Assembly: GCA_050273025.1 (NCBI GenBank)
Contig: CP158635.1
Span: 20,708,001 to 20,772,000 of the forward strand
Direction: 5' to 3'
Length of the DNA: 64,000 nt
Origin: Cenococcum geophilum
Taxonomy: Eukaryota
A program made the translations under genes and the position numbers. Numbering within the stretch: the stretch's first letter is position 1; every line of letters begins with the position of its first letter. Under the pieces are notes generated by a model. The model was given only the letters and a program-made list of their open reading frames with translations, did not search any database and was not told the DNA's origin. Of the stretch, positions 3,091 to 62,500 are shown piece by piece.

Positions 3091-3831
3091 AATTTTTTAG
3101 TAGTTCTAAGGTAGTCTTATTATAGCCTATCTACTTTACCTTATACTATATTTTATTATTAACGTCCTTATAACTAATAATCTTTAAAACTTACTATTTG
3201 TCTTCTTCTTATCCTTTATACGTGTCTGCCTTATAGACCGGTGGCTTAACATTCCCGTATACTAGCTTTAGCATTACAATATACTGTATAGGGTAGATTC
3301 TTATTTTGGCTGGTAGGTTTAACTTAAACGTAACTAGTAAAATCCTCTATATAATTTTAAAAGGTCCTAGTCTAACGTAGTCCAACTTCTTACTTAGTTG
3401 TTAACTCTTGAAATTTTTATATAGTAGCTATACTTTATCTCCCTCCTTAAGATCTAATCCCTTAAATCTCTTAGCGTTATAGTACTTTTTTATCCTTTGC
3501 TATACTACCTTTACTATTTCCGTAAGGTTCTTATAAAGATTTATTAATGTCTCTATTCTTTACTAAATATAGTAATAATAATATTCTTAGTTTATATCTA
3601 TAATTCGCCTTAAATAGTAAAGTACCTATTCCTTCTTAAGGTGTTGCATTGTATATAAACTATATAACTGGTAATAGCGATACCCAATTATTCTATACGT
3701 AATTAATATAGTGCCTTAGATACTGCTCTAGTGTCTAATTTAATCTTTCCGTTTAACCGTCTATCTGCGGATAATATGCGGTAAAAGTTGCTGCTCTAAC
3801 TCCTTACTCCGCTAAGAATACCTCCTAAAAT

Positions 3832-6800
3832 TGTTAGGCCATAGAGACGTACTAGCCGTAACCGGCTTAGCGCAGGCGAGGCGCAGGCGAGGCGCCTACA
3901 AAAGGTAGTTGCCCCGCATTAGAGAACAGCAGAATTTAATTCTATAGTTCTACTTTATCAAGAACTAGATACTCTTTGCATTCCGCTACTATTATTACGT
4001 TACTATATACCCTAAGGGCCTTGGCGTCCTAACAGTACTAAATTCTTATCCCTTTTCAGGGGTAGTGGCCCGACAACACAGCAGTCTGCTAAGGCCACGA
4101 CTACATAGCGGCAACCCTCTGTCGAGAAGACGACCTATATTTATTAACTATATTGCAGCCTATCGACCTAATGGCGAGACGAGGGCGTACTAGCGCAGTA
4201 CGTACTACCGAGCCTGGGGATTAGCCCTAGGATAACATAGGCGAACCTATATCGTCCCAGACAGAACCGGAAGCTATAAATAAAGGGGATATATAGAAAG
4301 AAATATAATAGCTAGAAAACGAGAAGCTATAACTCCTAGAGCAAAGAAAACTATACTTACTTAGGGAAGAGGTGGAAGTGCTAAAACGGCGTTAACGCGG
4401 CAAGGTGACGTCGACTTCCGTTCCTAACCTAGATCTACAACCTTAAACTATCCTATTAGAGTACTTAGATCGTAGCCAGATGCGTCCAAACCTTAAGCGG
4501 AAGGCTACTAATATAATAGGCGCTCCGTTAAAACGGGCCGTTAAAATAGAGAAGATTGCTCTATATTATAGTAAGACTATATAAGAGCACCAAGACTTCC
4601 GCGATAGCTTAAAGCTAGCGTTCCGCCTAGAGTATAACGGCTTCGCGGATAAGAATACTAAAGTCGCGTTTACTATATAATATATAAAGGGGACTAACCG
4701 AACCCTTTAGCTGTAGTATAAAGATAACCATCTAGATACGTAGTTTACCTAGAAGGAGCTAATAGAATTCCTAATTAACTAAATTAAAAGTCCTATTAAT
4801 TGAGAACTCTATATAGCCCTAATATATATAAGGGCAATGCAATGAACTAATTAACCTATAAACGAGTTTGCTGCTTACCTAACCTCCTTAAAAGTATAAA
4901 TTAATCTTTCCTATAATGTAAAGCATCTAATAATACACCTATTCGCGAAGCTACGGCTAAAGCTACGGCTTGCGGTTACTAACTATTAGGAGTTTCTATA
5001 AACTTAAAATTAGCTAGTTTCCCTAGCTGCCCTATTAGAGGAAAACCAGAAGAGCGCGAGCGCCCTATAGGCTAGAAGCAATAGGCACGCCGTAAACTTG
5101 AATATAAAGACCACCCTATTAGGTAACTTAGGGAAAGCGGACTTTAAAACCACCGCTAGCGACGTAATAGCGGGGCAAAGCAGTACTGCTAGGGGTTTAA
5201 CCCAACCTAAGGGGAACTACAAAAATTGTGGCAAGCTAGGATATTGGTGGCGACAGTGCCTAAAGCTATAACAGTACCAGCCGCAGTTAAGCAGTGTAAA
5301 CGCCATCTTAACGCTAGGAAAAGGCAGGCGCCCTTAGAGCCCCTTATACCTATAGGGCGTAAGCTACTACTAGATTATAAGGAAGCTATTACTATCTTAG
5401 GAGAAGTCCTATTTAAGTAAACCTAGAAGGAGACCTCAGTAATGCTTAATCTCGGCGCCGAAGTAAATGTAATTAATTAGCGATTTGTAATAGAGTGTAA
5501 CTTTAAGACACTAGATATAGAATTACCTACCTACTCCTAGTTAAATAAAACTTAGGTATATTGCTATAAAGCCTATAAGGTACTATTAAGGATAAAGAAT
5601 AACTGGAGCAGGATAAGGGAAGTAACCCTTATCTGCTATAGAATGGCTAACGCATCCCCTACTGTTACCCTAGGTATGCTAGGGTTAAAGAAGGCCCGAC
5701 TTCTTATTAATTATAAGGCGAAGGCGTGGTAATAGAAGCTAGACGGCTTATCCCTATTGCTATAAACCCCTAAGGGTTTCGCGGAGTCTCTCTAAAGGGA
5801 ATCTAGGGTCTTCGCCCTAGTAATTACTGGATTAATGCCTAGTAAATAAGATAACGGTAGCTTGCCGGTTCTTCCCCCATAGTTAAAAGAAGCTAGCGAT
5901 GTCTTCTTATATAAGGAAGTAGGAAAGCTACCCCGATACCACTAGGGCGACTATACTATTGACCTAAAAGAGGGACAGAAGGTCCTGTATAGGCCGCTCT
6001 ATAACCTCTTAGTTAAGGAGCTAAAGGTACTAAGGGAGTACTTAGATAACGCCTTAGCTAAAGGCTAAATCTGACTAAGTACTAGTCCCGTAGGGGTACC
6101 TATCCTATTTATACCTAAAAAAGATAGGAAGCTGCGGCTCTATATAAACTATAGAGGCCTTAATAAGGTGACGATTAAAAATTGTCTCGTACTACCATTA
6201 ATTAGTAAGACCTTGGACCGCTTAGTAGGTTCTAAGATCTTCACTAAATTAAACCTAACGAATGCGTACTACCGCCTTCGTATCCGTCGGGGCAATAAGT
6301 AAAAGACGGTGTTCCGTACGCATTACGGCCACTTTAAGTATTTAGTTTTGCCTTTTAGGCTAACTAATAAACTAGCGACCTTTTAGGGCTATATTAATTG
6401 GGTCTTATTAGGACTAGTAGACGTTTTCTATATAGTCTATTTTAATAATATTTTAATTTTCTCTAAAAATCTAGAGGAATACTAGCGCTACGTACTAGAA
6501 GTGCTATATAGGTTATAGTAATATCAACTATATGCAAACCTTAAGAAGTGCAGGTTTGGCGTATAAGAGGTTAAGTTCCTAGAATATATTATTAGTCCTA
6601 AAGGCATAGCGATAGATCCTAGCCGGGTAGAAGCTATTACTAAGTGGGAGAGCCCTTAATCCTATAGGGATATCTAGGTCTTCTTAGGTTTTGCTAACTT
6701 TTATTACTAGTTTATTTATAAGTATTTTACTATTATAAAGCCTATTACTAATCTCCTTAAGGGAGTAAAGAACGGCTGTAAAGCTAGGCCTCTCCGTTAG

Positions 6801-9800
6801 CCTAAAGAGGCGGAGTAGGCGATGCGCTAGCTTTGCGACGCCTTTACGACGGCGCCGCTTCTATAATACTATACGCCAGGCTTACCGACCCGGTTAGAGA
6901 CTAATGCCTCTATACAAGGCCTAGCAGTAATTATATTATAGCTATTTAAAGGTAGTCTTTAGCATCTAATAGCCTTTTAGTCTAGGAAGCTTTCGCTAGT
7001 AAAGCGTAATTATAAGACCTATAATTAGAAGCTACTAGCTATTATAGAGGCTTTTAAGCATTAGAGACACTATATTAAGGGGCTATTAAGCCACCTAAAA
7101 GTGCTCACAGACTATAATAATCTAAAGGGTTTTATAAAAGTAAAAGCCCTTAATAAACGGCAAGCTAGGTGGGCTATAGTATTAGCTACCTATAACTTTG
7201 TTATTAAGTATAGGGCGGGAAAAACGAACCCCGTAAACGCGCCGTTAAGGTAACCCCTAGGCGCAGGGGGTCCGCTAGAAGAAGACACTATACTACTATT
7301 GCTCTAAAGGACTTTGGGAATATAGGGCCACTAACTTAAAGTAAAAGTCCTATTAGGTATATAAGAAAACGAGCCTTTTATAAAGGTATCGTTTTTACGG
7401 CTATAAGCCGGCAACCTAACGGCGGTACGCCTAGGCTATATAGCATTACAGTTTGACTAGGCAACCTATATATATGCTATTAAGTAGCGTATAACGAGGA
7501 CCTAAGTTAGAGAAGCTAGTACTTAAGAGAGTGCTTATAAGTCTAGTACGGAAACAGTTATTAAGCTTATTAAAGGACTTTAGACTAAAGATAACTTTAT
7601 ACTGCAAAAGCGCAGTAATAGTATAGATACTGCAAGACGCCGTTAACGCGCCCGCTTAAAGCTAGTGTGGTAGTTTAATTCCGCTAGACTACTTTGTTAC
7701 CGCGGGAGGCTATATATACCCCTAGACCCAGCGGTTTATACAGAACTCCTATAGATCTACTACAATAATGCCCTAGTTAGGCACTTTAGTAAGAAAAAGA
7801 CTCTAAATCTACTTTTATGTAAATACTACTAGCCTAGTATAAATGCGGACGTTATAAACTATATCTTTACCTATAATTTATGCCAATGTATATATACGCC
7901 TTAATATCGCCCTTATGGCGAGCTCTAAGCGCTGCTTTACCTAGACTAGCTGTGGCAGGAGATTATAATGGACTTTATTATAGGCCTACTGCCTAGTAAA
8001 TAAGGCAATAAGGTATATAACGCAATATATATAATAGTCGACCGCTATACTAAGATGGCCTTATATCTGCCTATAGTAAAAACTATTACTGTAACAGAAC
8101 TTGCGGATCTCTTCCTTAATAAAGTAGTACGCCGTTTTAGAGCCCCTAGGGGGATTATATCTAATTACGGTAGTATCTTTATTAGTAAGTTCTAGTTAGA
8201 GCTATACTTTACTATAAAAATTAAACGTAGGCTAAGTATAGCCTTTTACCCGCAAACTAATGGGTAAATAGAACGCCAGAACTAAACCTTAGAGTATTAC
8301 CTCTGTGTGTTCTATAACGAAAAGTAAAGTAACTAGGTAGGCCTCTTATTGCTAGCTAAATTCGCCTATAATAATGCTAAATATAGTAAGACGGGTATAA
8401 GCCCGTTCTATGCCTACTATAGGTTTTACCCGCGTCTAAAATACGAGGTTAAGGCGGACAATAGTAGTTCTATTCTAGCCGCCTCTAAAAGGATTAAAAG
8501 GATATCCCTTAAACGTAAAGCGCTGGTGAAACGCTAGAAATACGCTACCGAGGCGTAGGTAAAATACTATAATCGTTATTACTAACTACAGATATATAAA
8601 GTAGGGGATTTAGTCTTGCTATTAACTAAGAACCTTAAACTAAAAAGGCCTAGTAAGAAACTTATAGCACGCTTTATTGGACCTTTTAGTATAGCTAAAT
8701 TAGTTAGAAAGTAAGCATACTAACTATATCTACCTACGTCTTACCGTATCCACCTAGTGTTTTATATTAGCTTACTAGAGCTATATAAATAACGTAAGGG
8801 CACTACTAGAGACCCTTTACTAGGGCTTATTAAGCTAGACAATTAAGCGGACCAAAAGAACTAATATAAGGTAGAAGAAGTGCGTAGAAGAAAGGGATAT
8901 AACTAGACCCTACAGTACCTGGTTAAGTAAAAAGGCTAGCTAAAAGAATATAACGAATAGGTCTTAGTAAAGGACATCGATAAGGACGCAAAGAAGATAT
9001 ATAATAGTTACTTTACCCTAAGGGGTAAACGGAAAAGAAAGTAGGTAGAAAAATAAAAAAACTTTTAATTATAACTAAGGTTACGCCCCACTAGTGGGGT
9101 AACAACGGAATAACGGCGGAGTGACGGTAATACGCTAATAGAAATATAGATACTCTACAGCTCCATTAAATCCTCCCTTTCCTCCCCTCCTTCCTTATCC
9201 TCCTCACCCTTATCCTCCTCCTTTCCCTCCTCCTTATCCTCCTTACCCTTATCCTCCTCCTCTCCCTCCTCCTTATCCTCCTCACCCTTATCCTCCTCCT
9301 TATCCCTTACAATGGGAGGTATATTGGCCTATAGGTACTATTAGCATATACTATAACGGCGAAACACCTGCGCTACGACACGTACTAAAGCGCGTATTAT
9401 GTTAAGAATTCCTTTAAGAGTATAACGGATGGCCTATAATTCCTGCACTTAGAGTAGGGGAAAGTCTTCGCCCTTTAGGCGCTGGCGGAGACCGTGCTTG
9501 GCGCCGGTGTGCACTAAGGCCTTAATATCCTTTGTAAAGGACTTCTAGGCGGTAGCGACGCGAGCGTTAAGGTTAGCTATGTCCCCGCTAGTAACCTACT
9601 AGCGCTTAGCCCTATTAATAAAGGCGAGTAGCTTATTTAGGCGGCTATGGAAGGCCTTAGGGACCTAGTCTGTTAGCCATTAGAACCTAAACTAACGCAC
9701 TTAGACGTACTGGTTGACACGACTTATTTAGTTATTAGTAGTACCCATAATTGTAGTTGGCCTGCTTACTATAAGTGGCCCGCTTAGCAGTAGCTATACG

Positions 9801-10455
9801 CTTAGTATAATAGAGGCAGATTAGTTCTAGCAAAGCTAGGGGAGCAGCTTGCGAGCGGTGTAGGAGCTTTGACGGCGCCTAGCAGGGTTAGCGACAGCTA
9901 TAAGCTAATATAAAAAATACTTACGGAAGACTCGTAAGCAGGCGAACTGACGGCTTAGCGCTTGCGATTTATAATTAATTAGAAGTTATAAAGAAGGCAA
10001 GTCGCAGGCTAAACGAATTAAAATGAAATTAGAAGGGAAATCTAATGTCCTACCTAGGTGGGAACTCCTACCTTTATAGATCTCTATAAGGTCCTATTAT
10101 TATATTATTCTATTATTACATTGCCCTATTATTATATTATTTAATTTACTTAAATTTATTAAAAACTTTTTATTTAGAGAAGGGCAATAATAGCACTCCT
10201 ATTATATAATAGCGTCGGCTAAGGACAGCCGCTTAAGAAGGGGGGGGGTAATTATTAGGCTATAGAGACGCACTGGCCGTAACCGGCTTAGCGCAGGCGA
10301 GGCGTAGGCAAGGCGCCTACAAAACGTAGTCGCCCCGCATTAGAGAATAGCAGAATTCAGTTCTATAGTTCTACTTTATTAAGAACTAGATACTCTTTGC
10401 ATCTTACTACTATTGTTACGTTACTATATGCCCTAAGGACCTTAGCGTCCTAACA
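3832..10455 (+). mobile_element. Full-length Ty3/Gypsy chromovirus-type element (family C), RIP-inactivated
   Basis: 203-bp LTRs 3832-4034 and 10253-10455; TSD AAAAT; PPT AAGAAGGGGGGGGG ~10235-10248; gag knuckle CKNCGKLGHWWRQC-like ~5218; protease LDSGAEVN-like ~5445; RT VYLDDILI-like ~6436; RNase H, integrase, chromodomain YLVKWKG ~8916. Confidence 0.95.
9155..9972 (-). pseudogene. Four-exon antisense gene in Gypsy C: six-Cys cluster, helical middle, acidic D/E tail
   Basis: Minus-strand introns 9879-9924 (GTAAGT..GCTAAC..TAG), 9665-9710 (GTACGT..GCTAAC..TAG) and 9329-9385 (GTACGT..GCTAAT..TAG). Splicing keeps one frame: MNRKRQ...EPIC-x2-C-x11-C-x7-C-x2-C-x6-C-QP|VP...EEDEGEE (several Cys inferred from RIPed TAT/TAC). 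Confidence 0.8.
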
Positions 10456-12656
10456 AAAATACTATTATAAATCTTAAATCTCTATCCAATACGATCTTAC
10501 TTAGTACTCTATATTTTATAAACACTTCCTTAATATAGATTTTAGCGATATCTTCTACTAATATCTCTTCTGTACACGCTATAAAGTATCCCTACTTTAT
10601 AAGCTTATCTACTATTACTAAGATCGCGTTATAATCTTGTCCTATAATAGGATCTTTTAATTTTAGCAACTTTATAATAAAGTCCTATAATATAACCTCC
10701 TATAGTCTCTCTGGTATTTTAATAGGTTATAGCCCTCTATATAGCTTATACTTTATTAGTTTATTCCTTTAGTAATTTAAATACTCTTTAGTAACCTTCC
10801 TAGCTATTTTTTAAATTCTGTTAATAATATACTCCTCTTAGAGTCTTAATACTAAGCCTATAGCTCCATTATGTCCTTAAGTTAGTCCCTTATAGAAATC
10901 TTCTATAAAGTGCTCTGCTATACTTTTTAGGATATACTTTACTTCTTGGTTTTCATATATATCCGTTTATAGATATTTTAGCTATATTTTTAAAATTCTC
11001 TATACTTAAAAGCTTTTTAGTAACTTATAAACTTTTTCTAACTTATTTTCTTAAGTTATTATAATCTTTAGATAATTATACCTAATTAACCTATCTATAT
11101 CTTTTTGCAGTAAAGCCCCTAATGGCTTCTTATTATTTTATAGTTTAGCCTTTTAACTTAACGTATCGGCCCGCGTATTGTCTATACCCTTAATATACTA
11201 AATCTTAAAATAGTATTCTATAAGCATCTCTGCCTATCTAACCTGTCTTTAATTAAGTTCCTTTATTATTAGAAATCCTATTAAGTTCTTATAGTCTATC
11301 TTAACTATAAATAGTTTTTCTATACCTTATAAGAATGCTCTTTATTTCTTTAATACTATAACTATACCTAATAACTCCTTGTTATAGATATTATAGTTTA
11401 ACTCTAGTGGTATTATCTTCCGACTATAGTATACCACTAAATGCTATCTATTTAGATATTTCTATATAAAGTATACCCTTAGTATAAAGTCTAATATATC
11501 TATTTCTATAACTGTTTCTAAACCTAGTTAATAGATCTTAAGAACTGGCTCTTAGGTAAATAACTCTTTAACTTTTCTAAATAACTCTTATTATTTCTTT
11601 CCCTATACCTATAGTTCTTCTTTTTTTATTAATCGCGTAAATAGTTTAATATCCTTTAACTATTACGCTATAAACCTTCTGTAGTAATTGCAAAACCCTA
11701 AAAATAATTTTAACTATATAACGTTCTCTAGTTCTTACTAATTTACTATAGCCTTAATCTTCTTTAGATCTATACTAAGTTGGCCTAGTTTAATAATAAA
11801 TCTAATAAAATTAGTCTTCCTAGTAAAGAACTCGCATTTTTTAATTGCTACTAGCATCTGTTCTTCTTATAGTCTCTTTAAAACCTATTTAATATATTTT
11901 CTATATTCTTCCTTAGTTATTAAGTAGATAATAATATCGTTAAGATATACTATGATAAATTTATCTAAGTATTCTCCTAATATATTATTAATACGCTTTT
12001 AGAATATTGCTAGTATATTTATAAGCCCGAATTGTATAATTAATAGTTTATATAGTCCTTCCTTTAACCTAAAGGCTGCCTTCCATTTATCGCCTTCCTT
12101 AATTTTAATTTAATAGTACGCCCATCTTAGATCTATCTTTATAAAGATTTACGCATTACCTATCCTATCTTAGATTTTGCTAATTAAGGGTAAAGGATAC
12201 TTATCCTTTCTAGTAATGCTGTTTAACTATCTATAGTTAATATACAGCCTTAGCTTGCCATTTTTCTTTAGTATAAATAGTACTGGATAACCCGCTAATA
12301 ACTATAATAGTCTAATATATCCATTTTATAAGTTCTCCTAGATAAACTCTTTAAGTACTCTACCTTCTTCTTTAATAAGCTTATAGATTAGAAAAAACCT
12401 TAAACTCGTTCCTTCTTCTAACTCTATTTTATAGTCCTACGCTATATACTCTAACAACTTTTCACTTTCCGGTAACTATAACTTTTTGCCATACTTATGG
12501 TATCTCTTTAGTATATGGCTTAGCCCTTTTTCTATTTCTTTATAGGTTGTTCCTACTTAGTATTATACTAACTTAGTTTATTATCGCATTTTACGGCGTT
12601 AAGTATCTCTAATATTAACTTAACCTATAACCTAATTAATCTTTAAATTGTATTTC

Positions 12657-13251
12657 TGTCATGTAATGCGCTACCTATACCTGCGGTATAGGCTAAAGAG
12701 CTTATAAGGCATTCTAACCGGCAGCCCATCCAGTCGCAAGACACTACTACTACCTTTTTAGTAGTTTATATGGTCGAGTGGGTTAGGCTTAGGCATAATA
12801 ATATATCTTGTAACTACCTGGAGGTTAGTGTTCGATCCGGTATAGGGTTGAATATTCATGAGTACGGGACAGCCTAAGCGACTGCACTGCCTGCAGTCGA
12901 GTACAGGGTATCGCACGTGCTTGCTGGAAGGTCACCTTATGGCTTAATAGTGCTAGTACATTTGGGTACTAGCGGGGACGCCTTACGATTACAGCTAGGG
13001 TGCTGTGGGCAGCTTGTACGCTGCGTGGCCAAGACCACCTGGCGAAAGGCTAGCCATTTGTCGTAGTTCAGGCGCCTAAGAACATGCGCCCTAGGAGGGG
13101 GTGTAGTTGTTATGCAATGCGCTACCTATACTTACGGTATAGGCTAGAGAGCTTATAAGGCATTCCAACTAGCAGCCTGTCTAGTCGCGAGACACTACTG
13201 CTACCTTTTTGGTGGTTTGTATAGTTAAGTAGGTTAGGCTTAGGTATAACA
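12657..13251 (+). mobile_element. TRIM copy 2 (595 bp)
   Basis: 144-bp terminal repeats 12657-12800 and 13108-13251; TSD ATTTC/ATTCC (one C>T); same family as 1963-2555; empty site at ~63700. Confidence 0.93.
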
Positions 13252-13938
13252 ATTCCTGTAACTAAGGCATTTCTAATACTGCCTTATTATTCCCTAATAG
13301 TAATATATTAAAAGACATCTTAATCTATCTCCCTTTAATAGTTATCTAAATTGGTCCTATTTTAAGATTAATAATACCTCCTCCGTAGGCTATCGGATCT
13401 CCTAAAATTATTACTAATAAGTAAGAATATTCCTTTTTCCTATATGGTAACCCTATTTTTTTTTTAACTGCTACTAATAAGATATGGTTCCTTATTGCTC
13501 TACTATCTATTAATGCCTTAAACTGTTAATCTTGCCACTTAACTTATAAATTTAGGTATTATTCTTAAATTCCTTTAAGGGTTTAAGGCTCTACTACTAG
13601 TTTCTTTTAGTCCTATAGGCCTCTACTTTTCCTAACTATTAGCTGCTTAATCCTATTTATATTTAGTCTAACTTAGGCTAATACTTAATTCGCTTTTTAT
13701 CTTTAATATATTATAAATATATATTCTTAGGACATTCCCACTACTATCGTCCGTTTAGGTATTCTTCCGTAAGAAATCTTCCTAGTTAAAGTATTAAGTC
13801 CCCTTATTCTTAAACTTCTACTAAGTGCCAACTATATATATACTTAGCGTTTTAATATTTTGCCTTATTTATTAACTAATATATCCTTATTAGATATTTT
13901 TGGTTCCTATCTTTAAGTACTTTATATATATTATACGC

Positions 13939-31700: not shown

Positions 31701-32790
31701 TAGATAAGGAGGAAAAGAAGGAGCTCTATACGCTTAAAGCCGACTATAGGGACAATATAAAGCTATATAGAAAATAGCTGTTAGCTCTTAATATATTGCG
31801 TAGCCATATTATAAGCTCCATCTTACATACCTACCTTATCTATATATTTAAATGCACTACTACCTATAATGTCTTAATGACTCTTAAGCAGAGAATTGCT
31901 CCAACTAATAGCGCTTAAAAGCTTTAACTAGCTACCTAGTATATAAGGCTTAAGAAAGCGCCTTAGAACTAGGACTTTATAGTCTAGTTATAGGAGTAGG
32001 AGACGGTATATACTAAGTATAAGGAGCTAAATCTATCTAAGGTAAACGGTAATTATTTAGTAAAAGACTTTATATATATAGTTAATTCTATTATACCAAG
32101 CTAGTTAGAATATTAGAAGAATTAGCTTAAAAGGCTTAAGTAGAAAAAGAAGACGCTTCCTACCCTCTTTAAACTAGTTAAAATATACCGAAACCACCGT
32201 TATACGGAGCTTGCCTAGAAGGGCAAAATATTATAAAGATCCTTTAGAGTGACCTTTAAGGACAAGTCGCCGAATTTAAAGCCTAAATTAAAGCCTTAAT
32301 TGTTAGTAGATAAATAGAAAAAGGAAAGGCGACCGCCGCTAGAGTACTTATACGGAAAATATTACTACTTTAATAAGTGCTAGTACATTATAGAGTCGAT
32401 TCCTTACCCATCTTAGCTTATACTAAGTAATAAAATTTAGAAGAAGATAGATAAGAAGACCGCTAATATAACGCCCGAAATTAAGGCTTATATTAAGTAA
32501 ATTAAAAAGGATAATTAAGCTAATAAAAAGGACGATTAAGCTAATAAAAAGCTAAAGAATAGTAACTAGTAGAGCTCTTAAGAGCCCTATAGAAACATTA
32601 TAGTTTATTATATAGGACCCTATAATACCGCTTCCAATTACAGGCTTTATAATAGTGTAATTCTTAACTTAAGAACTAGCCTATACGTCTTTAACGATAA
32701 AGCTAGATTTATTAGTGATATTAAGCCCACGTTAGAACGTGTCTATATAGGCTTATATATAGAAGAAATCGTAGGCTATAGGACAGCTAT

Positions 32791-42857: not shown

Positions 42858-43101
42858 TGTCACGGGACTCACACGTTCTCACGTCTCTACGCGTTTTGAC
42901 ATTCTTAACCCGTGCTCACGTTCGCCCCAAGACACCTACGCACGTTCCTCTACAACCCCTATTTATACCCATACCTAACCTATTCTATTTCTGCATCTAA
43001 ATGTCTTTATATTAACCACGCATAGTTACGCGTACGTAGCCTTCTTTAATTACTACCCCGTTTAGTACATTGTATTCTAGCTTATGCCCACTTCCGTAAT
43101 A
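42858..43101. mobile_element. Solo LTR (244 bp)
   Basis: TGTCACGG..CCGTAATA (RIPed CCGTGACA) termini; TSD ACAAT; no partner in the window. Confidence 0.88.
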
Positions 43102-43163
43102 ACAATTAAGTACTTAAAGGAGAATATAATAAACTAGATCTTTATAAGGGCAAGTAATATATT

Positions 43164-44645
43164 TATCGGTATCACCCAAGTGTACTTGATTGGCCTATTA
43201 ACTGATGAATTGATTCTTGTCTAATAGGTACAGAAAGCAGAGGATCGTAAGGATCGCAGTGCCTAAGTAGGGGGCTGATTAGTCACCATAAGGATGACTA
43301 ATCAAAGACACGTAACCACATAACCTCTGTCCATATATTCCGACACTGGCAGTTCTTTCTTTATGCTTGTAGTGCTGCAGGAAGGCAGCAAGGCAGCAAG
43401 GTAGCAAGGTGTCGGTTTAGCTGGAGGTAGAAGCAGTAAAGGTCTGTTCGGGTGGTAGTACGGTATCAGCGGCGGTAGTGATAGTGGTCAAGCATAGAGC
43501 TTGTCTATCAGTCGGTCGGTTGATCGTAGGCGTATAGGCACGATCATTCGGTCGGTAGATCGCAGGCGTATCGGCGCGATTAGTATCGTAATAGCAGGCA
43601 TAGCGGCGCTATCAGTTTGTCGATGGTATGTGGCAGTACGGTGCTAGCGTCAGGTGGATTGCAGGCGTAATGGCACAATCGTTTAGTCGGTAGACCTCTA
43701 TCCTAACGAAGCTTGATCCTTTGGACGACGACATCCCCAAACGTGCTTATAGAGGGTAGTATTCGAGGATAGGGAGCGCGCTGGCGTTATAGGCGCGCTG
43801 TTGGACGTGGTATTCGACGTGGCAGATCTGCAAGGAAGCAGACGGTGTCGGGGTTATAGGGGGTGCTGCTAATGCTGCTGGGTTGTGGGATGCTGCTGGC
43901 GCTGCTAGATGATGGTTTGCTGCTGACGCTGCTGGATAATAGTTTGCTGCTGACGCTGCTGGGTTGCTGTAACGCTGGTGTACTGCACGAGGCTGTTGGG
44001 TATTGGTTTGTATGCTATGACGCGTACTGGGTAATGGTTTGCTGCTGAGTTGCGTAGCTGCGCTGGGGTACTGCGTAAAGCAGTTGGGTAGTTGGATGTT
44101 GGGTGCTGTAAAAGCTGGTGTGCTGTGTACGGCTAGAGCGCTGCCGTAGTACTGCTGGGGTAGCTGCTGAGGTAGCTGCTGAGGTACTGCCCGAGGGCTG
44201 TTGGACGTTTGGTGCTGTTGAGCTGGGGGTACGGCACTCAGTGAAGAGGTCGTACTAGGGGTTGATTTGCGTGCTGTAGAATGTCTTGTGCGTTGCGTAT
44301 TTGATAAATATTCTAAGCTGGCTGGGGTTGGATGCTGCCGGAGCTGCTGGGTGCTGGTTTTGCTGCTAGGTACTGGATTGCTGCTTGCGATCGAACAAAG
44401 CTGCTGGGGCGGCAGTGAACCTTATTGCTCTATAGCCAACCGGTGAGGTTAACTATTGATTAATGTCAGTATCACCTAAGTGCACTTAATTGGCCTATTA
44501 ACTAATAAATTAATTTTTGTCTAATAGGTACAGAAAGCAGAGGATTATAAGGATCGCAGTGCCTAAGTAGGGGGCTGATTAGTCACTATAAGGATGACTA
44601 ATTAAAGACACGTAACCACATAACCTCTGTCTATATATTCCGACA
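43164..44645 (-). mobile_element. Non-autonomous LTR element (1482 bp), GalEa-like termini
   Basis: 182-bp LTRs 43164-43345 and 44464-44645; TSD ATATT; GC-rich interior with Q/P/S-rich low-complexity minus-strand reading and no pol. Confidence 0.9.
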
Positions 44646-45657
44646 ATATTTTTTAGAGATAATCTAGTTAGTAAAAAGAGTATAGAAGGCTATCTGTTTA
44701 CCTTGTTTAGAGGATTAATTAACTAGCAATTAACTAAGCAAAGATTAGTAATAAAGTTAAGCACTAAAGTAGAGCTTCTAGCCCTGTTACATACGGCTAC
44801 CAAGTTAATTTAGTGGCAGCGATTCTTTAAAGAAGTCGGATTTAATACTAATAAGAAGTAAGTAATCTATTATAATAATATATAGATAATTCAACTACTT
44901 ACTAAAAGCGACGTTAAGCTTAATACTAAGCTCTAATACGTTAATATTTATTACTACTAGCTCCGCTAGAAAGTTTATAAAGAAAAGATTAATATTAAAT
45001 AGGTTCCTACTGAGGATATAATAGCAGACGGCTTAATAAAGGCTCTGCCTTATTAAAAGCATAAGGCGTTTATTTAGTAATTAAACCTTATTAATATAAA
45101 GGATCTAATTAATTTAATTTAAATAATATTTGGATAGAGTAAGTATATAGAGGATTTTCCTTAACTTAACACCAAATTAGTATTATAACTTTTTAGAATT
45201 TCTATAGCAGCCTAGAGGGCCCTATGTAGCTAGGGGGGTATATTAACCTAAATTGGAGTTTTTTACTACTATTATAATACTATCTAACGACCTAGATTAT
45301 CTATACGAACTATATCTTAGTTATCTCTTAACTTATAACTAAATGTTTTATTAAATATCTCATTACCTATTTTCTATTACCTATTTTAACTTAGTTATTT
45401 AGGCCTACCTAATATATATAAAGAGCTTCTAGAGCCCTTATTAATAGACAGAGTTCTTATTCCTAATCGTCCGTTTAATAGTTATACAGCTAGGCTCTTA
45501 TAAGTCAGTATATATTATTAAAAGGATTTACGCTAATAGCTCTTTACTACCTACCTTCTTAATTTAAAAGGCGCAAGCCTACCTAGAAGAATAGTATTAA
45601 ATTAGTAAGTAAAATAAGGGCCTTTGTAAATATATATATACTACCTCCTTTAGTAGG

Positions 45658-50354: not shown

Positions 50355-51905
50355 TTTTTTTTTATTTTTTATTTTTATATCCGTTGTATTATACTACGTA
50401 TAATACTGCGCATGCAGCCTCTAGGCTATGGCGCTATAGTTCTATATACATGAATCCTTCCTAGGCAGCTTAACATGTACTAGTAGCTAAGTGGACACTC
50501 TGGCCCGTTTTAAATACTAGGGGGAGCTCCTAGCCTATTGGTGTTTTGTCCTGATATCTTGCTTACTATGGTCTAGTTTATGCCAAGAAAATCGCACTAA
50601 GGAAATCCTGGCTCTTTTATCTATTTCTGCCGTATTCTGCCATTCCTAGAGTAGAAAAAGCGCTCTAAAAGAAAGATTTTTATTAAATAGTTTTGCACTT
50701 AAGAATAAGAGGCGTTACAATAGCTTGCTAGCTTGGAAGCAGCTACCAATTACCTAAAGCGACTTTTTATCCTGTACCCTATCTCTTCTCCTTGCTAAAG
50801 AAATGGTTAGGGAATTAGTAATTAATAGGTACTCTCCCCAAAAATAACCTACTAATGGTATTTTATAAGGGCGAACCTCGTTACGTAAACCCACTCCCAT
50901 AGGAAAATTTTCACGAAGTTGTCTTGTATAGGGTATAAACACCAATTCGCCTATACACCTTAGATTTAACGTGCTAAAGTAACACGGGCCGGCCCCTTCC
51001 CCTCCCCCACTATAGCCACCCCTATCTGCGCATCTGCGGTACGCCTATAGTGCGGTATTGTATGGTATGTTGTGGCGGTGGTGGCGGTTGTGGTAGAGGT
51101 CGTCTGCAGCGCGATGGCCGTAGACAGGTTGTGGAGAGGTCGTCTGCAGCGTGATGGCTGTAGACAGGTTGTGGAGGTCGTCTGCAGCGCGATGGCTGTA
51201 GATGGTAGAGGTCGTCTGCAGCCTGATGGCTGTAGACAGGTTGCGAAGGTCGTCTGCAGCTTAATGGCTGTAGACAGGTTGCGAAGGTCGACTGCAGCCT
51301 GATGGCTGTAGACAGGTTGCGAAGGTCGACTACAGCCCGATGGCTGTAGACAGGTTGCGAAGGTCGTCTGCAGCCCGATGGCTGTAGACAGGTTGTGGTA
51401 GAGGTCGTCTGCAGCTTGATGGCTGTAGACAGGTTGTGGTAGAGGTCGTCTGCCGCTTGATGGCTGTAGACAGGTTGTGGTAGAGGTCGTCTGCAGCTTG
51501 ATGGCTGTAGACAGGTTGTGGTAGAGGTCGTCTGCCGCTTGATGGCTGTAGACAGGTTGTGGTAGAGGTCGTCTGCCGCTTGATGGCTGTAGACAGGTTG
51601 TGGTAGAGGTCGTCTGCAGCTTAATGGCTGTAGACAGGTTGCGAAGGTCGTCTGCAGCTTGACGGCTGTAGACAGGTTGCGGAGGTCGTCTGCAGCTTGA
51701 TGGCTGTAGACAGGTTGCGGAGGTCGTCTGCAGCTTGATGGCTGTAGACAGGTTGTGGTGGAGGTCGTCTGCAGCGTAATGGCTGTAGACTGGTTGTAGT
51801 AGAGGTTGTGATGTGTCTGGTATTTGGCGTCTGGTGACGTGTCCGTAGGGGCTATATAGCCAGGGGCGTCCTAGCGACGACGACGGAGGAGCGAAGGGGG
51901 AGACC
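50355..51905 (-). mobile_element. Non-autonomous poly(A) retroposon (SINE-like, 1551 bp) with internal hairpin array
   Basis: TSD TATACGCTAAC(T) at 50344-50354 and 51906-51916; interrupted poly(T) 50355-50376 = minus-strand poly(A); no RT or endonuclease motifs seen. Confidence 0.8.
51087..51809. repeat. Tandem array, about 18 units of mostly 38 or 41 bp, each with a hairpin
   Basis: Unit GGTC-GTCTGCAGC-ttgatg-GCTGTAGAC-AGGTTG(TGGTAGA/CGAA). Confidence 0.95.
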
Positions 51906-52250
51906 TATACGCTAACTAGCTGCTAGCGATACTGCCTATTAGCTATACTATATAGAGCCTTTTAAAAGCTAGGATATAGGGGAATTAAATATACTTACTA
52001 CTTTACGTACTCTAAAGACGCTAGGAACTATAAAGGAAATTAAATCTTTATATAGTTGGATCGACGAATTAGCAACCGCGCGACTTAACGGCCTACTTAA
52101 GACTCTAACTTAATGACGTCTTAAAAAGCCATTTAAAGCTTTAATAGGCTTCGCGACCGACTCCTATATCTAAAGGGAAGAAAATAAGAAATATTAAAGC
52201 CCTTGTATTAATAAGAAGTTAAGTAGGCAACTCCTTAGTAAGGGTAGAGT

Positions 52251-57160: not shown

Positions 57161-59551
57161 TATAATAAAGCCTTATAGGAAATACTACGGTAGACTTATT
57201 AATGGGCTGGGTATATAGGTATAGAATAGTTAATAACGTAAATATAACTAGTGGAGTAGTTGCCTAACAGATTAACTCTAATTATCTTTTAAGATTTACT
57301 ACTAAGAAAGAGAAACTATTTATAGAGACCGTGTGTCTTTAAATATATAACTCCTTCCCATAGTAAAGGGTTTAGTACGTTAGTACATTAGTATATTAGT
57401 ACGTCGCGTTTCTACGTTCCTACGTTCCTACGTTCCAAACTTGTAATGTAACTAGCTATATAACTTAGCTACCCCTTATCTTATAGCTTAATTGGTTCTA
57501 GCGCCTCCTATACTATCTTAACCCACCCATTTATATCTATTTTTAGTAGTTATACTACTACTAATATAAAGTCCGTAATACTATCCCCCTCCTCTTTATC
57601 TTTATCCTTAAAAATATCTCCTATCTCTAAGTTGTCTACCAGAGGTATAGTATTCCTGTTTTTAATTTAATAACCTTTATTATTTTTAATACCTCCTATT
57701 AGATCCTCTGCGTCTAATTATTATAACCAGCTAGTAATATTTATTCTTTTACTTGGTAAAGTTATACCGTCCTATTCTTATTATACGGAGAGGAAGTTAG
57801 TATATATTGTAATTACGGCTCCGTCTAGTTACTAACCTTCTTCCTATACTAAATGTACGTGAGCGAACATATAGTTATCCTATAATGTTTAATCCGTCTC
57901 TAATACTAAGTATACGCGTCTTATTATTCTTTATAACTATTTAGTTCCTTATTTAATCTATTCTAGGGTTATATATATTAATAGCGGCCGAAAGACTAGA
58001 GAGTAAGCTAGCTAAGGCCCTTACTAAGGTTTAGCGTCCTTTTAATAAGGCATTTTAGGCTCTAAAAGCTTAACTAGATGCTTATGCTCGCTTAAGCCAT
58101 TTAGTAAAGGTTCGTAAAAAGGTGCGCTTAAAGGAGCTGCGCTTAGTAGAGTAAGGTCTATTTAAACTTAAAACTAAGGAGACTGAAAAGGATTTTAATT
58201 AAGAAGAGGCGGAAATAGCTTATACGCTAGTGGTAGATACCTTAGGTAATCCGGCTCTTCTATTACCTTTAACTAATTCCTTTATCTTTAGCTCCTTCTT
58301 AATATTGCCTAACCCGTTTTCTTTTAATACTCCTATACCTTTTCTATAGTATTTTTTAAATTTTATAGTAGTTCCTAGGTAGTCTTATTATAGCCTATCT
58401 ACTTAACCTTATACTATATTTTATTGTTAATGTCCTTATAACTTATAATCTTTAAAACTTACTATTTGCCCCCTTTTTATTCTCTATACGTATCTGCTTT
58501 ATAGATTAGTAGCTTAATATTTCTATATACTAGCTTTAGTATTATAATATACTATATAGGGTAGATCTTTATTTTAGCTAGTAGGTTTAGCTTAAATATA
58601 ACTAATGAAATTCTTTATATAATTTTAAAAGGTCCTAGTCTAACGTAGTCTAACTTCTTACTTAGTTATTAACTCTTAAAAATTTTATATAGTAGCTATA
58701 CTTTATCCCCCTGCTTAAGATCTAGTCCCTTAGATCTCTTAGTATTATAGTACTTTTTTATTCTCTCTTATACTCCTTTTACTAATTCTATAAGGTCTAT
58801 ATAAAGATTTATTAATGTCTTTATTTTTTCTTTAGCTATACTACTTATTTTCTTCGCTTATTATAGTAATAATAATATTCTTAGCTTATATCTATAATTT
58901 GCCTTAAATAGTAATATACCTATTCCTTTTTATAGTGTTATATTATATATAAACTATATAATTAGTAATAATAATACCTAATTTTTTATGCGTAATTAAT
59001 ATAATATCTTAAATACTATTCTAGCGTCTAATTTAGTTTTTCTATTTATCTATCCGTCTATAGATAATATATAATAAAAGTTACTACTCTAACTCTTTAT
59101 TCCATTAAGAATACCTCCTAAAATACTACTATAAATCTTAGATCCCTATTTAATATAATTTTACTTAGTGCTTTATATCTTATGAATACTTCTTTATTAT
59201 AGATTTTAGTAATATCTTCTACTAAGATTTCTTCTATGCATACTATAAAGTAGCCCTATTTAGTTAACTTATCTACTATTACTAGAATTATATTATATTC
59301 CTATCCAGTAATAGGATCTCTTAACTTTAGTAACTTAATAATAAAGTCCTATAATATAACTTCCTATAGTTTCTCTAGTATTTTAATAGGTTATAGCCCT
59401 CCGTATAGCTTATACCTTATTAGTTTATTTTTTTTTAGCTATCTAGATATTCTTTTATTACGTTTTTAGCTATACTCTAGATTCTATTATTTTTTTTAAA
59501 GTCTTAATACTAAGCCTATTACTCTATTATATCCTTAAGTTATTCCCTTAT
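57161..59551 (-). mobile_element. Gypsy (A-related subfamily E): 3' LTR, antisense gene, chromodomain/integrase; interrupted at 59552
   Basis: LTR 57161-57580 similar to but diverged from the A LTR; PPT complement ctatccccctcctc; interior collinear with A. Confidence 0.88.
57689..58355 (+). pseudogene. Antisense six-Cys + coiled-coil gene of Gypsy E
   Basis: De-RIPed MPPVRSS...VMPSCSHCTERKLVCIVITAPSSRQPSSCTECTRANMRSSCDV; same intron position as the 60084 copy. End approximate. Confidence 0.7.
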
Positions 59552-62500
59552 TGTAACGGAACCTTGTAGCAGGAACTACGATAGGCTCATTATTAGGCTA
59601 GGTGTATAGGTAATGCAAATTAAAGTTAACAACGTAATAATAACTGGTGGAGTGGTTGCCTAATAGATTAACTCTAATTATATTCTAAGAATTACTATAA
59701 GGAAAGAACTGTCTAAAGTAGGGACTATGGTCCTTTAAATACATAACCGTACTTCTAAAAAACCCTCCTTGTATATAAGGTATGTATACTCTATTTACTC
59801 TATTACGGATTATATAGATTATACAGATTATACAGATTATATTACATGACTTAGTTACTATTCCTTATTATATAGTTTTACCAGTTTTATTCTAAACCGT
59901 GTTTATATTAACTAACTAGCTTCTTTTAACTCCTCTTTAAGTAGTTATAATATTATACTTAAAGCGTCCGTAATACCATTTCCCTCCTCTTTATTTTTAT
60001 CTTTAAAGATCCTAAATATCTCTAAGTTATTTACTAGAGGTATAATATCCGTCTAATTAATCTAGTTAATATCATTACTTATTATACCTAAAGTAACTTC
60101 TCTTTCCTCTATAGCCCGTCACGCTTATACTATTGCCGTTATACTATCTCTAGGTAAAATAATGCCGTCTCTGTGTTCTTATTGTGCGAAAAAGGGGTTA
60201 GTTTATATTACGCTAGTAAGTCCTTTATCTTAGTAACCCTCTTTTTATTTAGAGTATACTAAAGCAAACATTTATTCGTCCTATAATGTTTACTCTATCT
60301 CTAACGCTAAGTATACGCGTCCTATAACTCTTAATAGTCTATAAGTTCCCTAAGTAATTTGTTATAGGGTTTTATATTTAATCTACTACTACAAAGCTTA
60401 ATAGTAAGCTCTTAAGTGCTCTTAATAAGTTATACTAATTGTAAGAGGCGGAATAAGAGGCTGCGGCTGCTTAATAGCATGCTCTTAAAACTCGTCTTCT
60501 GGCCTCTACTTATCTTCTATATCTTAAATAGGTTCGTAAAAAGGTTTGTTTTAAGGAGTAGAAACTTAGTAATGAAAGGATAAACTCCCCTGCGAAGGAA
60601 ATAAGTCTAAATAGCTTGGTAACTGCTCCTCCTAGGTCCCCCTTAAGTGACTTATTTTTTAATCCTTTTTTATTAATACTGCCTAACCTAATCTCTTCTA
60701 ATACTCCTGTACCTTTCTATAGCGTTCTTTAAATTTTCTAGTAGTTCCTAGGTAGTCTTATTATAGCCTATCTACTTAACCTTATACTATATTTTATCGT
60801 TAATATCCTTATAACTAACGATCTTTAAAACTTGCTATTTATCTTCTTCCTATTCTCTATACGTATCTACTTTATAAACTAGTAGCTTAATATTCCTATA
60901 TACTGGCTCTAGTATTACAATATACTATATAGGGTAAATTTTTATTCTAGCTAGTAGGTTTAACTTAAATATAATTGGTAAAATCATTTATATAATTTGA
61001 AAAGGTCCTAGTCTAACATAGTTTAACTTCTTACTTAGTTGTTAACTTTTAAAAATTTTATATAGTAGCTATACTTTATCCCCCTCTTTAAGATCTAGTC
61101 CCTTAGATCTCTTAGCGTTGTAGTACTTTTTTATTCTCTGCTATACTACTTTAGCTATTCTTATAAGGTTCTTATAAAGATTTATTAATATCTCTATCCT
61201 TTACTTAGCTATGCTACTTGTCTTTTTTACTTAATATAGTAATAATAATATCCTTAGCTCGTATCCATAATTCGCCTTAAATAGTAATATATCTATTTCC
61301 TCTTATAGTGTTATATTATATATAAGCTATATAACTAGTAATAATAATACCTAATTGTTTTGTACGTAATTAATATAGTGCCTTAGATACTGTTTTAGTG
61401 TCTAATTTAATCTTTCTATTTAACTATCTATCTATAGATAATATGTAGTGGAAGTTATTGCTCTAACTCCTTACTCCGCTAAAAATACCTCCTAAAATAC
61501 TACTATAAATCTTAGATCTCTATCTAATATAATCTTACTTAGTGCTCTATATTTTACAAATACTTCCTTAATATAGATTCTAGCGATATTTTCTACTAAT
61601 ATTTCTTCTATATACGCTATAAAGTATCCCTACTTTATAAGCTTATCTACTATTACTAAGATCGCGTTATAATCTTGCCTGGTAATAGGATCTTTTAATT
61701 TTAGCAACTTTATAATAAAGTCCTATAATATAACCTCCTATAGTCTTTCTGGTATTTTAATAGATTATAGCCCTCTATATAGCTTATACCTTATTAGTTT
61801 AATTTTTTTTATAATCTAGATATTCCTTTATAACCTTTTGCGCGAGGTTTTAGATTCTATTAATAATATACTCCTCTTAGAGTCTTAACACTAAGCCTAT
61901 AGCTCTATTGTGTCTTTAAGTTAGCCCCTTATAGAAATCTTCTATAAAGTGCTCCGCTATACTTCTTAGGATATACTTTACTTCTTAATATTTATATAAT
62001 ATCTCCTTTTCTAAATGTTCTAACTATTCTTCTAGTTATGCTTTAAAGATCCTTTATACCTAAAAGCTTTCTAGTAACTTATAAACTCTATCTAGTTCCT
62101 CTTAAGTTATTATAATTTTTGGATGATTATACCTAATTAATCCGTCTATATCTTTTCGCAGTAAAGCCCCTAATGGCTTTATATTATTTTATAGTTTAGC
62201 TTTCTAACTTAAAGTATTTACTTATATATTATCTGTTCCTTTAGTATACTAAATCTTAAAATGGTATTCTATAAGCATCTCTGCCTATTTAACCTATCTT
62301 TAGTTAAGTTCCTTTATTATTAAAAATCCCGTTAGGTTCTTATAAGCCATCTTAACTATAAATAGTTTCTCTATACCTTATAAGAATACTCTTTATTTCT
62401 TTAGTCCTGTAACTATACCTAATAACTCCTTATTATAGATGTTATAGTTTAACTTTAGTAGTATTATCTTCTAACTATAGTATACTACTAGGTGCTATCT

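Follow-up and report, generated by a model that had tools for sequence, protein, structure and literature searches.

We analyzed a stretch of 64,000 nt from Cenococcum geophilum (assembly GCA_050273025.1, contig CP158635.1, positions 20,708,001 to 20,772,000 of the forward strand), hereafter referred to as the window. At positions 3832–10455 on the forward strand, it contains a Ty3/Gypsy chromovirus that has been inactivated by repeat-induced point mutation (RIP), and the strand opposite to the gag-pol frame of this element bears the remains of a spliced gene (9972–9155) between the end of pol (~9044) and the polypurine tract (PPT, 10234–10248). What this antisense stretch preserves is very probably a genuine third gene, belonging to one clade of fungal Ty3/Gypsy chromoviruses, in a copy killed by RIP. 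The host element has TG..CA long terminal repeats (LTRs), a 5-bp target-site duplication, a PPT and the order reverse transcriptase, RNase H, integrase and chromodomain. Pfam matches in the window pol comprised RVT_1, RT_RNaseH, Integrase_H2C2 and SH3_Tf2-1; the chromodomain match was weak (E 0.073), and nearly every pol homologue listed has PF00385. The marks of RIP are evident throughout the element: its TA/AT index is 2.0, the two LTRs differ at 20 positions, 19 of them transitions, and the gag-pol frame holds 100 stops in 1640 codons without a single frameshift. Since the element has no indels, its reading frames could be used as a signal.

We examined the antisense strand using a strict pattern of intron donor, branch and acceptor signals. 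Four starts of this pattern were found on both strands of the window (128 kb of strand), and three of the four were located within the 818 bases of the antisense gene, where they represent two distinct introns; the fourth was at 31830–31763. A loose form of the pattern was frequent (0.64 per kb per strand), so that evidential weight comes from the strict form alone. Three antisense introns with canonical signals between pol and the PPT, and a single frame after splicing, had been proposed in an earlier reading of the window made from the sequence alone (the sequence-only reading), and both proposals were confirmed. The spliced antisense product has 669 nt in one frame, which is interrupted by 8 internal stops in 223 codons (TAA or TAG, never TGA), compared with 14 and 27 in the other two frames. 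At the six positions of the cluster C-x2-C-x11-C-x7-C-x2-C-x6-C, Cys codons remain at two (the first, TGC, and the last, TGT), and the remaining four are Tyr codons (TAT, TAT, TAT and TAC), each of which is one G-to-A step in TpG away from TGT or TGC. Given the ATA at the start, the 8 stops and Tyr at four of the six Cys positions, the six-cysteine protein is a reconstruction with the effects of RIP undone. The acidic tail claimed in the sequence-only reading was also found, Asp and Glu making up 29 of the 57 residues of exon 4; the 39-nt tandem repeat that encodes it varies in length between copies in DNA sequencing runs. The proposed start MNRKR fared less uniformly: N-R-K-R is present in exon 1, whereas the Met is an ATA codon and the start is a guess, exon 1 being unlike its counterpart in the relative described below. 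The window copy itself is dead and unable to make protein.

Taken by itself, such a frame could be attributed to chance; in other words, the intron signals and the frame might be products of a RIP-rich sequence that was never a gene. RIP enriches CTAA and TAG, loose introns are common, the frame is rich in stops and four of its 'Cys' are Tyr. However, three quarters of all strict-pattern starts in the window are found here, and the comparisons with relatives described next bear directly on this explanation.

Using the window pol, we obtained 110 homologues at E ≤ 1e-10, with a top identity of 45%, and an alignment of 16 pol homologues was used as a query that returned 76 metagenome loci. One of these, L004, is un-RIPed (53% GC) and has an antisense gene right after pol (pol to 6862, gene at 8057–7235 on the minus strand). 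We aligned each window exon globally with the corresponding exon of L004 and compared the scores with those of 1000 shuffles of the window exon. Exon 2 (z 7.8) and exon 3 (z 8.1) were significantly similar to their counterparts, no shuffle scoring as high in either case (0/1000), and exon 4 gave z 2.4, with 22 of 1000 shuffles scoring as high and P-I-V-R common to both sequences. In the exon 2 alignment, the four Tyr residues of the window are placed opposite Cys of L004. A protein predicted on the same contig, P0113, reads the TGA in L004 exon 3 as Trp and starts inside intron 2; as a prokaryote-style gene call under another code, it is not independent evidence.

The similarity was visible by shuffled global alignment, by a family profile and by pairwise BLASTP only. 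Standard tblastn and phmmer searches between the window and L004 exons all gave E values above 0.3, a word-based protein search with window exon 3 returned no match, and blastn found nothing for exon 3 at the DNA level, the similarity of this exon existing in protein space only. Further members of the family were also compared. A phmmer search with L004 exon 2 against 1.84 billion representative sequences gave 8 matches at E ≤ 1e-3, six of which contained the cluster; the other two, P0116 and P0117, are long repeat proteins and were set aside as spurious. Including L004 and L006, a second locus from the pol search, eight relatives were thus available. All six cluster positions are Cys in L004, P0115, P0118, P0119 and P0121, the last four being the library proteins with the full six-Cys pattern, whereas P0114, which appears RIPed, has Tyr in place of the first Cys, P0120 has Trp in place of the last and L006 has the six-Cys pattern with x8 as the second loop. 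Accordingly, the spacing proposed in the sequence-only reading is exact in 5/8 relatives, and the other three have one loop off by one residue or one Cys missing; the part of the proposal that did not stand is the literal presence of the six Cys in the window, where only two are found.

A profile of the Cys domain made from 7 relatives, with the window excluded, matched the window at 9878–9738 on the minus strand with E 2.5e-4, the third best of 12,558 ORF (open reading frame) pieces; L006 was matched at E 3e-5, and the next unrelated piece had E 0.13. BLASTP aligned exon 2 with P0118 (E 3e-5, 16/47 identical) and exon 3 with residues 170–228 of the same protein (E 3e-7, 18/59 identical), and these two matches are consecutive parts of P0118. 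This protein, a 230-residue hypothetical protein from a metagenome-assembled genome of the lichen fungus Pleopsidium flavum, continues directly from the cluster into the homologue of exon 3, and its N-terminus is basic and AT-hook-like; window exon 1 has N-R-K-R. The layout of the protein family is a cluster, approximately 90 residues predicted to be helical, and a variable low-complexity tail; the window has an acidic tail, whereas that of L004 starts Pro-rich and becomes acidic. Exons 2 and 3 thus match un-RIPed relatives exon by exon and at the same place, so that a chance origin of the frame appears, in our view, to be refuted by the exon alignments together with the profile and BLASTP matches, and we regard it as extremely improbable.

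We further compared the positions of the introns. Two codons past the last Cys, the cluster is followed by an intron of 46 nt in the window, in L004 (7815–7770) and in L006 (691–646), an agreement that likewise speaks against chance. The unspliced ORFs P0115, P0119 and P0121 read Val two residues past the last Cys, and the RIP-like P0114 reads Ile, which fits a GT donor at this point; beyond it, the four sequences no longer resemble one another or P0118. At the position of intron 3 in the protein alignment, L004 has an intron of 65 nt (57 nt in the window). For intron 1, the 44-nt intron of L004 is two codons off in the alignment, and L006 has none there. Introns antisense to the genomic RNA survive retrotransposition, and the persistence of those described here would be explained by the genomic RNA being their antisense strand.

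The distribution of the gene was then compared with a phylogeny built with FastTree from 64 composite pol rows of 1024 columns, after exclusion of 12 loci with fewer than 700 filled columns. The window, L001 and L004 were grouped with support 99 and were joined by L006 with support 93; this group was nested in an 8-row clade (support 99); the highest pol identity of the window on the tree was 48%. The antisense gene was present in three of the four rows of the window's group (the window, L004 and L006, but not L001), in addition to the six further library proteins. The ends of the L006 contig (1–154 and 7514–7668) are 99% identical, the assembly wrapping one element that is in tandem or has collapsed at its LTRs; because of this overlap, the antisense gene of L006 also adjoins the end of pol. 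In L010 and L005, no six-Cys gene of the x11 family was seen, nor was one in L003, for which flanking sequence was lacking. The comparison shows a gene that is conserved among related elements rather than a one-off insert, and it bears out the claim of an element-borne, spliced, antisense accessory gene, which recurs in L004 and L006 in unchanged place and orientation, with its introns. The sequence-only reading had also named beforehand what would count against it, namely Tyr or stops at the Cys positions of relatives, or relatives without the ORF; the claim withstood this check.

These results also bear on the possibility that the element family once transduced a piece of a host gene, which has since been carried as a passenger without a role. 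Host genes typically have introns, the annotation of P0118, on a contig of 3.4 kb, is that of an ordinary hypothetical protein, and the nearest look-alikes in the ESM Atlas are Ascomycota hypothetical-protein clusters without Pfam families (157, 63 and 77 members; genomic setting unknown). However, the gene has been kept at the same place although pol differs at about half of its residues, its presence tracks the pol tree, and the Cys positions, the place of the intron and the length of the intron are conserved. We consider a passenger improbable, although an ancient capture from a host as the origin of the gene is compatible with its being a real third gene of the clade.

Several observations weigh against such a gene. 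The nearest pol relative of the window, L001, shows no such gene in the 1.3 kb that follow pol, and it ceases to resemble L004 just past pol. The window gene has no start codon, contains 8 stops and has lost four Cys, so that its expression cannot be demonstrated from this copy. L004 is decayed as well: its exon 3 has one in-frame TGA, and 36 stops interrupt its pol frame. Exon 1 showed no similarity to exon 1 of L004 (z –0.7, 827/1000 shuffles scoring as high). Finally, relatives have Ala opposite a TAA of window exon 2 and Val opposite a TAA of window exon 3, changes for which RIP alone is insufficient. The coordinates of all features are summarized in Table 1.

Table 1. Features of the Ty3/Gypsy element and its antisense gene in the window, and of the antisense gene in the metagenome locus L004
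Feature	Position or length	Strand	Basis or remark
Window: target-site duplication AAAAT, left	3827..3831	.	Identical 5 bases at 10456–10460; flanks continuous in other copies of the host repeat
Window: 5' LTR, 203 bp, TG..CA	3832..4034	+	Pairs with 10253–10455
Window: gag-pol frame, Ty3/Gypsy chromovirus, RIP-inactivated	4101..9044 (end approximate)	+	Single frame, Pfam domains
Window: exon 4 and stop codon (9155–9157); conserved P-I-V-R start, then acidic low-complexity tail	9155..9328	-	Open 57-codon frame directly past acceptor
Window: 39-nt tandem repeat, 3.1 copies, coding the acidic tail	9185..9307	.	Repeat search
Window: intron 3, 57 nt, GTACGT..TGCTAAT..ATAG	9329..9385	-	Splice signals
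Window: exon 3, 93 codons, 5 stops, helical region	9386..9664	-	Similarity to L004 and P0118
Window: intron 2, 46 nt, GTACGT..GCTAAC..CTAG	9665..9710	-	Two codons past last Cys
Window: exon 2, 56 codons, 2 stops, six-Cys cluster inside	9711..9878	-	Similarity to L004, P0118 and family profile
Window: cluster remnant C-x2-C-x11-C-x7-C-x2-C-x6-C	9717..9818	-	Codons TGC, TAT, TAT, TAT, TAC, TGT
Window: intron 1, 46 nt, GTAAGT..GCTAAC..CTAG	9879..9924	-	Splice signals
Window: exon 1, 16 codons, 1 stop, first codon ATA	9925..9972	-	Presumed start codon, absent in sequence
Window: A+T-rich spacer upstream of antisense gene	9973..10233	-	GC 0.29; promoter presumed only
Window: PPT	10234..10248	+	Purine run, ends 4 bases ahead of 3' LTR
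Window: 3' LTR, 203 bp	10253..10455	+	Pairs with 5' LTR
Window: target-site duplication AAAAT, right	10456..10460	.	Matches left duplication
L004: exon 1	8057-8034	-	Starts ATG; gene model read by eye
L004: intron 1	44 nt	-	By-eye model
L004: exon 2	7989-7816	-	Holds C-x2-C-x11-C-x7-C-x2-C-x6-C
L004: intron 2	7815-7770, 46 nt	-	By-eye model
L004: exon 3	7769-7488	-	One in-frame TGA
L004: intron 3	65 nt	-	By-eye model
L004: exon 4	7422-7235	-	Pro-rich, then acidic

GAL4-type Zn2Cys6 domains have the spacing C-x2-C-x6-C-x5-12-C-x2-C-x6-8-C. The kinship with this family (PF00172) that the sequence-only reading had seen in the cluster was not borne out, because the first loop is x11 rather than x6 in the window and in all eight relatives (the L004 ORF, the L006 exon, P0114, P0115, P0118, P0119, P0120 and P0121), and because none of the eight reached the gathering score of Zn_clus (21 bits). 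The remaining spacing fits PF00172 (x7, or x8 in L006, then x2 and x6). Only P0121 touched Zn_clus (10.2 bits, E 0.89), window exon 2 gave no match to it, and no Pfam family was found at its cut-off in any of the eight. The family profile matched nothing among PDB sequences at E ≤ 10. A histone-fold hint (CENP-S) for window exon 3 (E 0.14) was rejected, as the relatives did not reproduce it.

There are nevertheless points in favor of a genuine Zn(II)2Cys6 transcription factor of the GAL4 type, one that would bind DNA as a dimer and activate the element or genes of the host. As in GAL4, LAC9, Pho7, Leu3 and Hap1, the six conserved Cys form two C-x2-C..C halves, of which the second is the canonical C-x2-C-x6-C; both are fungal, and the order of the parts (basic stretch, cluster, helices, acidic tail) is alike. 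AlphaFold models were of low confidence (predicted local distance difference test, pLDDT, 58.7 with P0118 as input, 60.2 with only the domain); in both models, each C-x2-C is followed by a short helix, and the P0118 model has helices at 144–162, 167–192 and 200–227 after the cluster. With the domain model, Foldseek returned a single row, GAL4(Cd) 1aw6, although with E 9.7 and a probability of 0.04, and VIA-align returned nothing at Z ≥ 2; for the helical part, VIA-align found generic helical hairpins only (best Z 5.9).

A second argument for a GAL4-type factor comes from a sister clade on the pol tree. In its members, the corresponding place and strand are occupied by a different antisense gene, which has 174–223 codons and six invariant Cys with the canonical Zn2Cys6 spacing (C-x2-C-x6-C-x8/9-C-x2-C-x6/7-C). 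The ten carriers (L023, L030, L032, L034, L037, L045, L046, L057, L061 and L062) form a clade of their own (support 100). Like the window gene, this gene encodes a small protein with helices after the cluster; it differs in its spacing, in its long coiled coil, in the lack of introns and in its separate pol clade, and the profile similarity between the two families was not significant. Five of the ten members touched Zn_clus at E ≤ 1, and the best PDB matches of the sister profile were LAC9 (0.013), GAL4 (0.022) and Pho7 (0.11), with Leu3 and Hap1 lower. In an hhalign comparison of the two families, all six Cys were aligned with one 5-residue gap, although with a probability of 0.8% and E 0.066. 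Moreover, the sister family itself remains under the Pfam cut-off (best 17 bits), and the region after the cluster shows no clear coiled coil in the window family.

With the x11 loop, the Pfam and PDB searches empty at their thresholds, the low hhalign probability and models at pLDDT 59–60 all weighing against a link to GAL4, membership of the window family in PF00172 is not shown, and we regard a true GAL4-type factor as rather unlikely. Descent of the cluster from a GAL4-type domain by the addition of five residues to the first loop is doubtful, yet slightly less so. More broadly, it is conceivable, but quite unlikely, that entire clades of fungal chromoviruses have an antisense gene for a zinc-cluster DNA-binding regulator of their own, in a canonical intron-less form and a derived form with an enlarged loop and three introns, both from one captured host Zn2Cys6 factor, and that this regulator would act as an accessory transactivator of the retroviral type or would steer integration or counter silencing.

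Two further sequences concern the sister clade and the 8-row clade. At 60066–60230 (+) of the window, an ORF piece weakly matched the N-terminus and first C-x2-C of the sister profile (E 0.0095), and another RIPed sister-clade Gypsy element may lie there on the minus strand. In the 8-row pol clade, L018 has a third kind of Cys-rich antisense ORF after pol (4461–4754, minus strand, and downstream), the end of which resembles C-x2-C-x6-C and the preceding loops of which are much longer.

Returning to the third gene of the window's clade, we consider that its six Cys probably bind zinc. In live copies, the gene would be read from its own promoter in the A+T-rich spacer or in the 3' LTR, and it would encode a small regulator of the element that binds zinc and combines a basic, a helical and an acidic part. 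A more specific role, like the nuclear regulator (transactivator, anti-silencing or targeting factor) put forward in the sequence-only reading, can be proposed only tentatively: the protein might be a small nuclear factor that binds nucleic acid or chromatin and regulates the expression or targeting of the element, in the manner of an activator with basic, zinc-cluster, helical and acidic parts.

The antisense RNA itself might instead be what matters, for example through control by double-stranded RNA or small interfering RNA, the reading frame being incidental. Non-coding antisense transcripts of LTR elements are known, and such a role is discussed in PMC7264820 for the plant antisense genes described below. 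However, conservation is seen at the protein level, with the six Cys kept at 27–55% identity, the frame is maintained across three introns and exon 3 has no similarity outside protein space. A role of the RNA alone is therefore very improbable.

The antisense layout is already known from other elements. HBZ of HTLV-1, which encodes a nuclear regulator of the bZIP type, is likewise accessory, antisense, spliced and close to the 3' LTR; it belongs to an animal retrovirus, and only in layout is it analogous to the window gene. PMC7264820 mentions the antisense promoter of HTLV. Among fungi, the chromodomain Gypsy element Boty has an extra gene, brtn, between pol and the 3' LTR and antisense to gag-pol, according to PMC8365987, PMC4227169 and PMC7264820. 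The window gene has the same place and strand, the two being likened by layout alone. The brtn gene is reportedly attributed to Zhao et al. 2011 (Virology 417:248). If BRTN has the same cluster, the window gene would be a further member of the brtn family. Within the literature searched, in which most subscription journals were not represented, no zinc-cluster-like antisense gene of a fungal Gypsy element was described, and Boty was the only fungal antisense case.

In plants, the aORF-3R genes (maize Grande gene23, rice RIRE2, Silene Retand and Phaseolus PvRetro13) are likewise antisense and between pol and the 3' LTR, and PMC7264820 describes plant antisense ORFs as conserved within families and suspected of a nuclear or regulatory role, their function being unknown; in the same source, their proteins are reported to be without clear similarity to other proteins. 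The window gene and those of L004 and L006 agree with them in place and strand, but the plant genes come from another kingdom and have no known sequence relation to the window family, which has a conserved six-Cys cluster and three introns that are likewise conserved. To the known layout, the window family adds an exact x11 spacing, a 46-nt intron and a distribution congruent with the pol tree.

According to PMC7264820, the role of antisense extra genes in LTR retrotransposons is an open question. A conserved six-Cys domain that probably binds zinc offers a concrete hypothesis, which can be addressed by asking whether the protein contains zinc, binds DNA or RNA and localises to the nucleus, and conserved introns provide a direct read-out of antisense expression. 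The results also indicate that RIP-degraded copies can be decoded correctly once intact relatives are found, the window itself contributing a dead copy only.

We also searched for other copies of the element. No second copy was found within the 64-kb window. DNA runs of two organisms contained 3427 (X1) and 3204 (X6) contig pieces that are 80–99% alike; in X1, 317 of 332 changed places were transitions, an excess indicating many RIP-diverged copies. Contigs of both X1 and X6 join 8705 to 9459, with 753 bases skipped, so that some copies are missing exon 4 along with part of exon 3 and the terminal part of pol. An RNA run (X21, strandedness unknown) gave 20 reads over 1956 bases, all less than 95% alike and none with a splice joint, a result that favors neither the presence nor the absence of splicing.

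The element is inserted in another repeat (3700–3831 and 10456–10500), uninterrupted copies of which are located at 58993–59164 and 61367–61538 and define the empty site and the 5-bp duplication. A direct repeat of approximately 600 bp (88–89% identity; 1957–2556 and 12651–13252, 10.7 kb apart) flanks the element on both sides, and its two copies may be the LTRs, or other parts, of an older outer element. Islands of higher G+C content (0.41–0.55) with a strong positive GC skew were observed at 43001–45000 and 51001–52000, the rest of the window having 26–43% G+C.

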